Positions 45,001 through 48,000 of a DNA stretch of 64,000 nucleotides are shown here, in pieces (positions within the stretch are counted from its first letter, which is position 1; each line of letters opens with the position of its first letter). The stretch is from assembly GCA_037200965.1 (NCBI GenBank), contig JBBCGK010000001.1, forward strand, positions 96,001 through 160,000. The letters are read 5' to 3'. The stretch is from a bacterium. Lineage in GTDB: Bacteria; Patescibacteriota; Minisyncoccia; Phycocordibacterales; Phycocordibacteraceae. The position numbers were made by a program.

Positions 45001-48000
45001 GAAAGGAATCGCCGACAAGATCGCCCGGCGTACTCGTCGAGAAATCCCACGAATAATCCCAGTCCACCGAGTCCGGATCGAAATCAAGATGCGGCGGGAT
45101 AACCTCGATGCCCGGTCCGCCTTCGACGGAAACCGTCACCCGCGCATTCTTAAGCGCAACGCCTGGATCGAACGTGGCCATGACAAGCCCGTTGAGCTCC
45201 CGATAGGGAATTCCGTTCTCGTCAACCTTCCGCTCGCTTAGCTGCCGGGAAGGCTCGAGGCGGAAAGGACCCGACGTATCGCCCGGAGAGCCCACTTCTA
45301 TAGTAAAGTTCTTCGAGTACCCGAAGGGAAGGAAATTGACGTAGAGAACATAGAGAAGGAAAACGAGCGGGATGGCATACGCGGCAAAGGTCAGCCAGAA
45401 CTCGAGAGTCCGGACGGCCCGCCGGAATCTCGCAGGAGTCTCTCTAATGAAGCGCGTAACTTCCGCAGCGGCCCTGTGAAGGGCCGCTGCCGCGTAGCTA
45501 GCTACGCGCTCGTATATGCCGTTTGCGTCCATGCAATGCATTTAGCCACGATTCTCCGATTTCTGCAATGCATCTCGTCCTTAATATCCCATATAATTGA
45601 GACCACACCAAAGATACCAGCGCAATATCCGAACTGCCGCTATCCCCACGATCATTGATTTTTCACTTGCGCGCGCTATACTGCAGTCATACATAGCTTC
45701 GTCCGCTTTCCACGGAACGGAGAAATAATGCATGAAAACGAACAACCGAAAGAGGGTTCCCGCCTCGGACGCGCTTATTTCAAAGCTGGTGCAGCTTGAG
45801 ATAGAGATAAGCAAACTGCCCCGCCTTTCCCCGCTTGAGCAGGCGAAACTTAACAACGGACGCGCGATCGAGCATTTGTATTATTCCAGCAAGCTGGAAG
45901 GCAGCAGCCTCAGCGAAAAGAAAATAGAACACGCCATCTATGGCCGACGGATTTCGGCCGCCTAAAGACAAGGATGAGCTCGAAGACCGCGAAGTGCGCG
46001 GCTTCTGGAAAGCTATCGCGCTTTCAAAGAAAATCGGCGAGAGCAGGGAACGCATCACCCTCGATACTATATTGCGCATCCACCGGACCATGTTCGAGTC
46101 CGTAGCCCCGGCAATGGCCGGTCGTTTTCGCACTGCCGGGGAGGATATAAAGAAGTTGGAATGCCTGGAACCTCCTCCGGGGAGGGTTGTACAGGAAAAG
46201 ATGTATGAATTCTGGAAAATCCTAGACGCGCAGTTGTCAGTACTCCCGTCGCATGCCAAAGGGAATACCGTCACGCAGACAAGAAAATGGAGGACCTCCG
46301 TTTTTGACACAGCGACTTGGACCCAGCATCAGGTTGCCGCAATACACCCGTTCTGCGACGGGAACGGCCGCATGTCCCGGCTCCTCACGAATCTTATACT
46401 CAGCAGATACGGGCTCCCTCCGAGCCAAGTTAAATATGAAGGTGAGGATAAGAAAATGTATCTGAGAGCGCTTTGCCAGATTGATCTCTATGGGGACTAT
46501 GAGCCGCTCAAAAAACTCATCGTGCGGAGCGTCTACGAGGAGTACCGAAAAGAACGCATTTTGAGAAGGAGAAACGGTTAGCGGCGAATCTGCGAATTCA
46601 CTCATCGCTTTTTATAAAAATCTTATACGCGGGATGCTATCACATTCCTCATACAAGGAACGATAACGACATCGACATGCTATCCACGTGCGGAAGATGC
46701 GGATCATTTTCATTCGAACGAAAGGGGCTTGAGCGCGAAACCGCGTTCGCGTTCGTTCAATGCGCGCGGTGCGGGGTTCCCGCGGGGCTTGCGCAGGAGC
46801 GGATTGACGGCGCGGACTCCGTAAGCGCGCTTGCCGTCAAACTCGACGGAATTACATCCGCTCTCGCCGCGCTTACGGAAGCCGTGCGGCAGCTTGAACA
46901 ACGAAACTAACTCCGCCACTTGCGTGGCGGAGTTAGTCGGCGCTTGGCTACGGTGTATGTAGTAACCGTGGGAGAACTAGGTCCTCACAAGCGCTGATAA
47001 CAAAATAAGCTCTCGGTCCAGAAAATACAAATACGCCGGGACCTGCCTAGAACCGATACACCCAGATTTCGGAATAAGAATTCGTCTTGCTGTAAAACAC
47101 CTCCGTAAAATGCTCCCGGATATAGGCGGTTTCCTCCTCCGGAAGGCGGCCGGGGCTCAGGGCAAGCGTATCAAGGACGAGGTAGCCGCGCGAAGAGGAG
47201 GTGAGCGCCTGAAGCGGGGCGAGTCCGTCGAGCACCCTTGCTCCGACATAGGATTCGCGCCCGTCGGGGGAAACCGCCGCAGGATCGTCAAAACCCAGAT
47301 AGTCATACCGCACCCAATAGCCGGGCTCGCCGAGGAATATCTTGGTGAATTGAGGGAGAGACGAGACGATCGCGTCTCCCGGGACGCGGTGCGACTTGAT
47401 GTACGCGTACGCTCCCGTCCAGTCCGGCTGCGGCGTATAGGCGTAGTAGGGGCGGGCGGCGAGCGCCGCAGGATCGTCCGACTCGAGGAAGTAGAGGCTC
47501 TCGGGCTTCCATACGCCCGTACCCGAGGCAAAGAAGGCCAGAACAACGAGAAGCCCGATACTTATCTTCTGCCACCGCGGGCGCGCCAAGCTTATAAGAT
47601 CGGAAGTCCCGAGCGCGGCGAGAATGAAGATGACGGGCGTGAGGTGGAAGAGGTAGCGGTAGTGCACGATGCCCGTCAGAAATCCGAGCGGAAGGAGATA
47701 CGCGAGAAGGGCGAAGAGAAGGAGCCATACGCCGCGCCGGTCCTCCCGCGTTCGCGCAAGCGCGACCAGGGCAAGAAGGAGGAGCGGCCAATAGGAGCGG
47801 AGGTAGAAGCTCAGGTAGTAGGGAAGTTCGTAGTGGAAACTTATATGGCTCATAAGTCCTGCCAAGGAAGCGGGCGCGAACGCGCAGCCGACGGCACCCG
47901 CGCAGGCCAAGGCAAGCGCTGCGAATCCCGCCTCGCGAAGCCTAAAGAGTTTTCTAAGAATCCAGCGGTCAACCAGAAACCACGCGATAAAGATGCCCGG

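Follow-up and report, generated by a model that had tools for sequence, protein, structure and literature searches.

This analysis concerns a stretch of 64,000 nucleotides (nt), hereafter the window, from a patescibacterial genome (assembly GCA_037200965.1, contig JBBCGK010000001.1, positions 96,001 to 160,000), and within it two overlapping open reading frames (ORFs), ORF1 and ORF2, that encode a small protein and a Fic protein, respectively. Taken together, the data make it highly probable that the pair forms a conserved two-gene inhibitor/enzyme module, which has the architecture of class I Fic systems but derives by fission from a class II, FICD/HYPE-like gene. Fic classes are defined by the position of an inhibitory helix and, in class I, a small upstream protein supplies this helix, with its [S/T]xxxE[G/N] motif, in trans (PMC3667792, PMC5033356). 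The elements of the locus are the following.

45655..45682, plus strand: promoter-like site TTGATT-16 nt-TATACT, about 50 nt upstream of ORF1; candidate promoter for a two-gene operon
45719..45722, plus strand: GGAG, a Shine-Dalgarno-like element 9 nt before the ORF1 ATG, with no counterpart before ORF2
45732..45965, plus strand: ORF1, ATG start, 77 amino acids (aa); putative antitoxin-like inhibitor, related by homology to the N-terminal part of class II Fic proteins
45885..45902, plus strand: inhibitory-helix motif S52-S-K-L-E56-G57 ([S/T]xxxE[G/N]) in ORF1; E56 is the predicted inhibitory glutamate
45940..45965, plus strand: out-of-frame overlap of ORF1 and ORF2, 26 nt; ORF2 is read in frame +1 with respect to ORF1
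45940..46581, plus strand: ORF2, ATG start, 213 aa; Fic catalytic domain without an inhibitory helix of its own
46345..46380, plus strand: Fic active-site motif H136-PFCDGNGRMS-R147 (HxFx[D/E]GN[G/K]RxxR) in ORF2; R147 is the predicted salt-bridge partner of the inhibitory glutamate

ORF2 is recognised by the Pfam Fic family PF02661 (E=2.4e-14, 54.4 bits for a cut-off of 24). Its residues 136-147, HPFCDGNGRMSR, correspond to the canonical Fic motif, and H136, P137, F138, N142, G143, R144 and R147 are invariant in 31 ORF2 homologues. A motif search across the whole of ORF2 returned no [ST]xxxE[GN]. This motif is carried by ORF1, where S52, S53, E56 and G57 are invariant in 20 homologues. By itself, the motif is weak evidence, since, by a rough estimate, about 3-4% of random 77-aa ORFs would contain these six residues by chance; it becomes meaningful because of its invariance in the ORF1 homologues and because homology reaches well past it. 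A preliminary description of this DNA had recognised both ORFs, namely the 213-aa one with a Fic motif and no inhibitory helix and the 77-aa one with its SSKLEGS segment, as well as their 26-nt overlap in different frames, and all these observations stand. Within the overlap, the ORF2 ATG (45940-45942) is embedded in the ORF1 codons TAT-GGC, and the TAA stop of ORF1 (45963-45965) in the ORF2 codons CCT-AAA. As a stop codon is present at 45925-45927, four codons before this ATG, position 45940 is the first and only possible start of ORF2. Upstream of the pair, the promoter-like site provides weak evidence, because the consensus scan found one such site for 1.3 expected by chance.

The relationship with class II proteins becomes visible when the two ORFs are joined into a conceptual ORF1-ORF2 fusion. 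Using phmmer, the fusion aligns with human FICD (E=3.2e-19) over query residues 46-265, continuously through the ORF1/ORF2 junction, and with Bacteroides BT_2513 over query residues 17-255. In these comparisons, the SSKLEGS segment of ORF1 falls opposite TVAIEGN in human FICD and SNAIEGN in bacterial class II proteins. When conceptual fusions were made for 18 loci, a multiple alignment showed them to be colinear with ten single-chain class II proteins; Y50, S52 and E56 of ORF1 never vary in it, nor do the catalytic residues of ORF2. With hhalign, the ORF1 family matched class II N-termini at a probability of 95.7% (E=9.5e-9) over 56 columns, far beyond the six-residue motif. More distant Fic loci are mostly of the single-chain class II type (121/139), in which the inhibitory motif precedes HxF by 131 residues and the protein has 296 aa (both medians). 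Hence sequence and fold homology to class II is found both in the N-terminal region and in the catalytic domain. Helix and Fic domain are, however, not carried by one polypeptide in the present case, as the two frames differ and ORF1 ends at a stop codon.

Structural modelling points in the same direction. An AlphaFold (AF2) model of the fusion was calculated with an alignment for the Fic part only, which gives no depth for residues 1-70. The mean predicted local distance difference test score (pLDDT) is 89.9, with values above 90 over most of ORF2, and the predicted template modelling score (pTM) is 0.85; modelled without an alignment, the fusion reaches a pLDDT of 37.6. In the model, helix 11-27 of ORF1 packs confidently on the Fic domain. 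The best matches of the model found in the PDB with Foldseek are FICD/HYPE (E=6e-10, template modelling (TM) score 0.65), C. elegans Fic-1 and BT_2513, whereas class I toxins rank far lower, BepC having E=1.2e-4 vs 6e-10 for FICD.

The best explanation for these data is that a class II gene was cut in the loop just past the inhibitory helix region. By its appearance, the module goes back to an old event of this kind, with an ancestral frameshift or fission as its probable origin. Two fused relatives were retrieved by profile search, P0245 (284 aa, locus L167 3001-3855) and P0255 (279 aa), both with degenerate motifs: the catalytic histidine of P0245 is replaced by arginine (IRPFTDGNGR), and P0255 has LSKLDN together with HPFQDGNLR. 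These two may represent fused forms that were inactivated or repurposed. Both adjoin the split subfamily in a rough neighbour-joining tree. This tree is too rough to settle whether two split subfamilies, the present one and a sister subfamily described below, share one fission.

The split is conserved. The 213-aa and 77-aa proteins are found with the same layout in three independent assemblies, GCA_037975565.1 (960-kb contig), GCA_015689235.1 and the Logan assembly of SRR28211700. The DNA of the first and of the third is base-for-base that of the window over 5-6.6 kb, and GCA_015689235.1 was compared by its identical gene calls. Since the DNA of the locus is identical in independent assemblies, an indel private to one assembly is excluded. 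When the conceptual fusion was used as a query against 5.8 billion proteins, the best 120 matches had 47-100% identity and 158-225 aa (mostly 211-225), and they covered at most about 75% of the query, always its ORF2 part. None of these best 120 Fic homologues is a fused ORF1-ORF2 protein. Once aligned, ORF2 homologues share one starting methionine, which is located past the inhibitory region.

Related loci were then collected from genome and metagenome collections and by contig look-ups. Of these, 23 loci whose Fic ORF is 47-70% identical were examined, hence 24 with the window. An ORF1 of 70-83 aa lies upstream, with the Fic ORF in the +1 frame, in all 24 of them. The ORF1 consensus across these loci is LPxLSPxEKAKLDxxxAIDxLYYSSKxEGSxLTxxxIxKAIHG. 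At every locus, the Fic ATG is embedded in NAT-GGN codons (NAT-GCN in two cases) that specify the last conserved residues of ORF1. Past this conserved part, ORF1 extends by 0-8 unconserved residues up to the first stop codon, giving overlaps of 8, 11, 17, 26 or 32 nt.

Used alone as a query in a word-indexed homology search, ORF1 matched only itself, and searches of Pfam, NCBIfam, PADLOC and PHROGs returned nothing for it. Its family was reached by means of a profile built from the ORF1s translated from the related loci. This profile retrieves 238 proteins at E<=0.01 (clusters at 90% identity). The best 120 of the 238 are stand-alone proteins of 62-103 aa that have no Pfam domain and are called 'hypothetical protein' where they are named; one ORF1 homologue touches DUF4172 at E=0.046, which is a hint only. 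The family occurs mostly in Patescibacteria, with source names including Giovannoni-, Harrison-, Kaiser-, Jorgensen- and Liptonbacteria as well as Paceibacterota. For locus pairs with unsaturated synonymous sites, the ratio of nonsynonymous to synonymous substitution rates (dN/dS) of ORF1 is 0.05-0.18 over the 45 codons upstream of the overlap, which indicates strong purifying selection on ORF1. From sequence comparison, ORF1 and ORF2 are thus separate genes, each conserved and each under selection. As a side observation, a true disruption within the split Fic family is illustrated by L008 (3001-3351), where the Fic ORF is cut to 116 aa on a contig of a metagenome-assembled genome (MAG) with about 1.8x coverage, probably because of an assembly error or because the gene is a pseudogene.

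How could such a pair function? In all three Fic classes, the inhibitory glutamate contacts both the nucleotide, through a hydrogen bond, and the second arginine of the motif, with which it pairs, leaving ATP in a non-productive state, and removal of the helix or mutation of the glutamate yields an active, toxic Fic enzyme (Engel 2012 and Goepfert 2013, as quoted in PMC3667792 and PMC5033356). In FICD, as in the Fic-1-AntF complex of class I, this glutamate is reported to convert the enzyme into a deAMPylase (PMC13327609). By analogy, ORF1 would bind ORF2 and rebuild the class II fold. E56 would then pair with R147 and force ATP into a non-productive pose, so that AMPylation would be switched off in the complex, and the complex may have deAMPylase activity in its place. 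Once separated from ORF1, ORF2 would AMPylate a target. As concerns expression, the ORF2 start is located 23 nt upstream of the ORF1 stop. The position of this start inside the 3' end of ORF1, together with the lack of a Shine-Dalgarno element before ORF2, suggests translational coupling, in which termination followed by reinitiation would hold ORF2 at or below the level of ORF1. An inhibitor/enzyme module of a toxin-antitoxin-like kind would be the most likely role of the pair.

Several points weigh against this interpretation. The inhibitory-helix region of the model has a pLDDT of 51-56 only, because the alignment gives no depth for residues 1-70. Both the direction of the event (fission rather than fusion) and the number of events depend on the rough neighbour-joining tree. 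The coupling argument is one of geometry, since a clear Shine-Dalgarno element before either ORF is missing in most loci, which makes the cross-locus comparison of these elements uninformative. More generally, expression, binding, activity and toxicity of ORF1 and ORF2 are predictions for a module known from its genes. Finally, ORF2 alone may be unstable, because ORF1 supplies structural helices in addition to the inhibitory one in the model; in that case, an obligate two-subunit enzyme would be more plausible than a classical toxin-antitoxin system.

The latter possibility deserves attention. The pair might be an obligate two-subunit Fic enzyme, that is, a 1:1, class II-like, self-inhibited AMPylase/deAMPylase with no role for free ORF2 and with a regulation such as that of FICD or EfFic (oligomeric state, metal, target). 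Several of the above results would fit this idea: ORF1 and ORF2 occur together at the 24 loci, with no orphan seen; ORF1 spans the whole class II N-terminal region, beyond the inhibitory helix; its helix 11-27 is predicted to pack on the Fic domain; and the closest structures are those of bifunctional FICD enzymes. On the other hand, the neighbourhood changes from locus to locus, with mobile or defence genes as frequent members, which is typical of selfish or defence cassettes. At separate related loci, these neighbours include a tyrosine integrase with an RHS toxin, a diversity-generating retroelement, and DUF4145. The antitoxin-first, overlapping gene order is also typical of type II toxin-antitoxin modules, and some relatives lack the inhibitory glutamate (L171, SSLVSG). 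The two-gene operon, the small adjacent or overlapping antitoxin gene and the variable or mobile contexts by which type II toxin-antitoxin systems are recognised are all found here. Because the neighbourhoods are variable and rich in mobile elements, they suggest a self-contained cassette of the toxin-antitoxin or defence type that moves horizontally, rather than a housekeeping enzyme. An obligate enzyme is still regarded as a serious contender, though on the unlikely side. It shares the anatomy described above and differs in physiology, a difference to which sequence alone is blind; our confidence in a specific toxin-antitoxin physiology is lower than that in a two-gene module derived from class II.

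One of these contexts was seen over a longer distance. The only copy labelled Acidobacteriota (locus L172, on the same contig as L001, from a MAG) is surrounded, within 12.6 kb, by genes for a relaxase, a SIR2 protein with tetratricopeptide repeats (TPR), a HicB-like antitoxin, a large serine recombinase, a primase zinc-ribbon protein and XRE regulators. The whole region resembles an integrated mobile element, suggesting that the module has moved horizontally.

A quite different reading would make the overlap a site of programmed +1 ribosomal frameshifting (45928-45962), producing a full-length class II Fic protein in addition to free ORF1. The +1 relation found throughout the 24 loci of the split subfamily would agree with it, as would the perfect colinearity with class II proteins that is obtained once one nucleotide is corrected. 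Against it, no slippery sequence is conserved across the 24 junctions, and homopolymer runs of at least four nucleotides are absent from the shift region of the window (45928-45962). RNAalifold predicted 0 conserved base pairs for 20 junctions, and the fold of the window's junction is no better than that of shuffled sequence (z=-0.52). The position of the ORF1 stop varies, this stop following HG directly in L002. In addition, frameshifting would not need a strictly conserved Fic ATG. The ORF1 codon that gives the 'AT' of this start is NAT at all 24 loci, whereas His/Tyr/Asn codons elsewhere end in T in 67% of cases; this pattern is the one expected if the ATG serves as the ORF2 start.

Further evidence comes from a sister subfamily identified by an exhaustive profile search, in which a Fic protein of about 210 aa is preceded by a small upstream ORF with YYSSxxEGS. 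Here, the genes are separated by 7-9-nt spacers or have an ATGA overlap, and all three relative frames are present. The existence of spacers and of every frame relation in this sister subfamily argues that pairs of the ORF1/ORF2 type are separate genes. One of its members, L171, has a small ORF (150-365) with SSLVSG, in which the inhibitory glutamate is lost, and a Fic ORF (375-1016) in the same frame, the Fic start being 9 nt past the TAA of the small ORF. Overall, programmed frameshifting is very improbable. As for a known example of this type, a prfB-like programmed +1 frameshift gene was considered and rejected, given the lack of a slippery or hungry-codon site, the variable stop and the lack of structure.

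As regards an indel introduced by sequencing or assembly, or a frameshift that recently inactivated the gene and would make the locus a class II Fic pseudogene, the change of frame by a single base exactly where class II proteins continue does resemble an error when seen in isolation, but the identical DNA of independent assemblies, a split kept in all relatives down to 47% identity, the purifying selection on ORF1 and the intact catalytic and inhibitory residues leave this explanation a negligible probability. The frameshifted class II gene that the preliminary description had envisaged is thus not a correct account of the present sequence, identical between assemblies and conserved in its split, while it probably does describe its history, as an old fission.

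The two-gene module is located at the right edge of a low-GC island (GC 0.35-0.46 at 38-44 kb vs 0.55 for the whole window), the GC content of the pair itself being 0.52. This agrees with the preliminary description, which had placed the pair at the edge of an AT-rich glycosylation island. The surrounding features are as follows.

36587-37774, plus strand: intact single-chain class II Fic protein, 395 aa (Pfam Fic E=2.2e-16, weak Fic_N match, SARIEGN)
37972-44157: low-GC glycosylation cluster, with two family 4 glycosyltransferases (GT4), one of family 2 (GT2), a Wzx/Polysacc_synt flippase and a 648-aa PMT_2-like protein
44429-45541, minus strand: 370-aa ORF directly upstream of the Fic pair, with an N-terminal hydrophobic segment and no Pfam or PHROG match
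46677-46910, plus strand: 77-aa ORF with two CxxC pairs, zinc-ribbon-like (weak match to PHROG 9414, E=2e-4; no Pfam match)
46905-46938: strong 15-bp GC-rich hairpin after the 77-aa CxxC ORF; terminator-like, also for the convergent minus-strand PMT_2 gene
47047-48741, minus strand: second PMT_2-like gene, beyond the Fic pair

The 395-aa Fic protein lies about 8 kb upstream of the split pair, across the low-GC island. It is recognised by the PADLOC SoFic model (E=2.8e-42) and shares only 23% identity with the split pair. A second low-GC stretch (0.41-0.49) occupies positions 58000-64000, at the right end of the window.

With respect to its meaning, the locus and its family would exemplify a class I arrangement, the inhibitor acting in trans, that has its origin in the fission of a class II gene. 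The small protein of the pair would correspond to the entire N-terminal region of class II and be unrelated to VbhA/FicA. Such a natural two-piece FICD-like enzyme offers a way to study the inhibitory and deAMPylating role of the glutamate by mixing subunits. The family also provides an annotation for at least 238 small proteins (90%-identity clusters) labelled 'hypothetical', and it calls for caution in genome curation, since what appears as a frameshift in a known single-chain family can be a split that is functional and conserved. More speculatively, it is conceivable, although we would not count on it, that a large unannotated split-FICD-like clade exists, mostly in Patescibacteria, in which the switching glutamate sits on a separate, translationally coupled subunit. 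Stoichiometry, rather than the oligomeric or metal switches of FICD and EfFic, would then set the direction of the reaction, and class I architecture would have arisen independently of VbhA/FicA through frameshift-driven fission, possibly repeatedly.

Class I Fic modules as such are already known, including pairs with an overlapping small ORF in C. fetus (PMC5651007). What is new here is the FICD-like class II ancestry of both halves, the nature of the small protein, which covers all of the class II N-terminal region and is unrelated to VbhA/FicA, the conserved out-of-frame overlap in which the start codon is embedded, and the family itself, by its size and its taxonomic focus. In the library that was searched, no paper linking Fic modules with Patescibacteria was found.

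The organisation of ORF1/ORF2, bicistronic and antitoxin-first, is the same as that of VbhA/VbhT (Bartonella schoenbuchensis) and FicA/FicT (E. coli YhfG/Fic, Yersinia, Pseudomonas Fic-1/AntF). The features by which class I was defined (Engel et al. 2012) are also present, as the Fic protein lacks the helix and a separate small upstream protein carries the motif. The class I FicT/FicA pair proposed in the preliminary description is therefore retained for its two-gene architecture, conserved in all relatives and with both ORFs under selection, and abandoned for its membership of the FicT/FicA or VbhT/VbhA families. ORF2 scores 14.7 bits with the NCBIfam model NF045983, vs a cut-off of 800, and is thus rejected as a VbhT/FicT homologue. 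It also has no DPY segment, a segment described as general for class I toxins (Stanger et al., PMC5033356). When the ORF1 profile was compared with all PDB chains (E<=10), no VbhA, EcFicA or AntF chain was matched; the only match was the motif region of the class II C. difficile Fic protein (4x2e, E=0.29). The inhibitory glutamate of ORF1 is residue 56 of 77 and comes after two helices, whereas it is E24 in VbhA and E28 in EcFicA and AntF. To the extent that sequence can tell, the pair is class I by architecture only, outside the FicT/FicA lineage.

Other systems show more limited resemblance. In the fti3/fic3 and fti4/fic4 pairs of C. fetus, a 78-aa ORF for which an inhibitory glutamate is proposed lies upstream of fic and overlaps it by 8 or 15 bp (PMC5651007). 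Its motif is, however, poorly conserved (GHAIEN), the pairs are borne by an integrative and conjugative element in a pathogen, and fti is likened to ORF1 by description only. The PADLOC models PDLC04839 and PDLC03963 (PDC-S04, SoFic), which have no curated cut-off, recognise ORF2 with E of about 8e-19 and 66 bits; SoFic is nevertheless a single-chain class II protein of about 360 aa, unlike the two-gene ORF1/ORF2, and ORF1 has no PADLOC match. Several related split loci adjoin integrases, recombinases or other defence-like genes. 'Mobile mystery protein B' (TIGR02613) was rejected as a family for ORF2 (47 bits vs a cut-off of 124).

The closest known relatives of the pair remain FICD/HYPE, C. 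elegans Fic-1 and BT_2513, which are its best matches both in sequence and in structure and are colinear with it across the junction. In FICD-type proteins, helix and catalytic domain belong to one polypeptide, whereas ORF1 and ORF2 are two genes in different frames, devoid of the TPR and transmembrane parts of FICD-type proteins. As compared to FICD-type class II proteins, the split family also has an insertion of about 15-25 residues before the catalytic helix.

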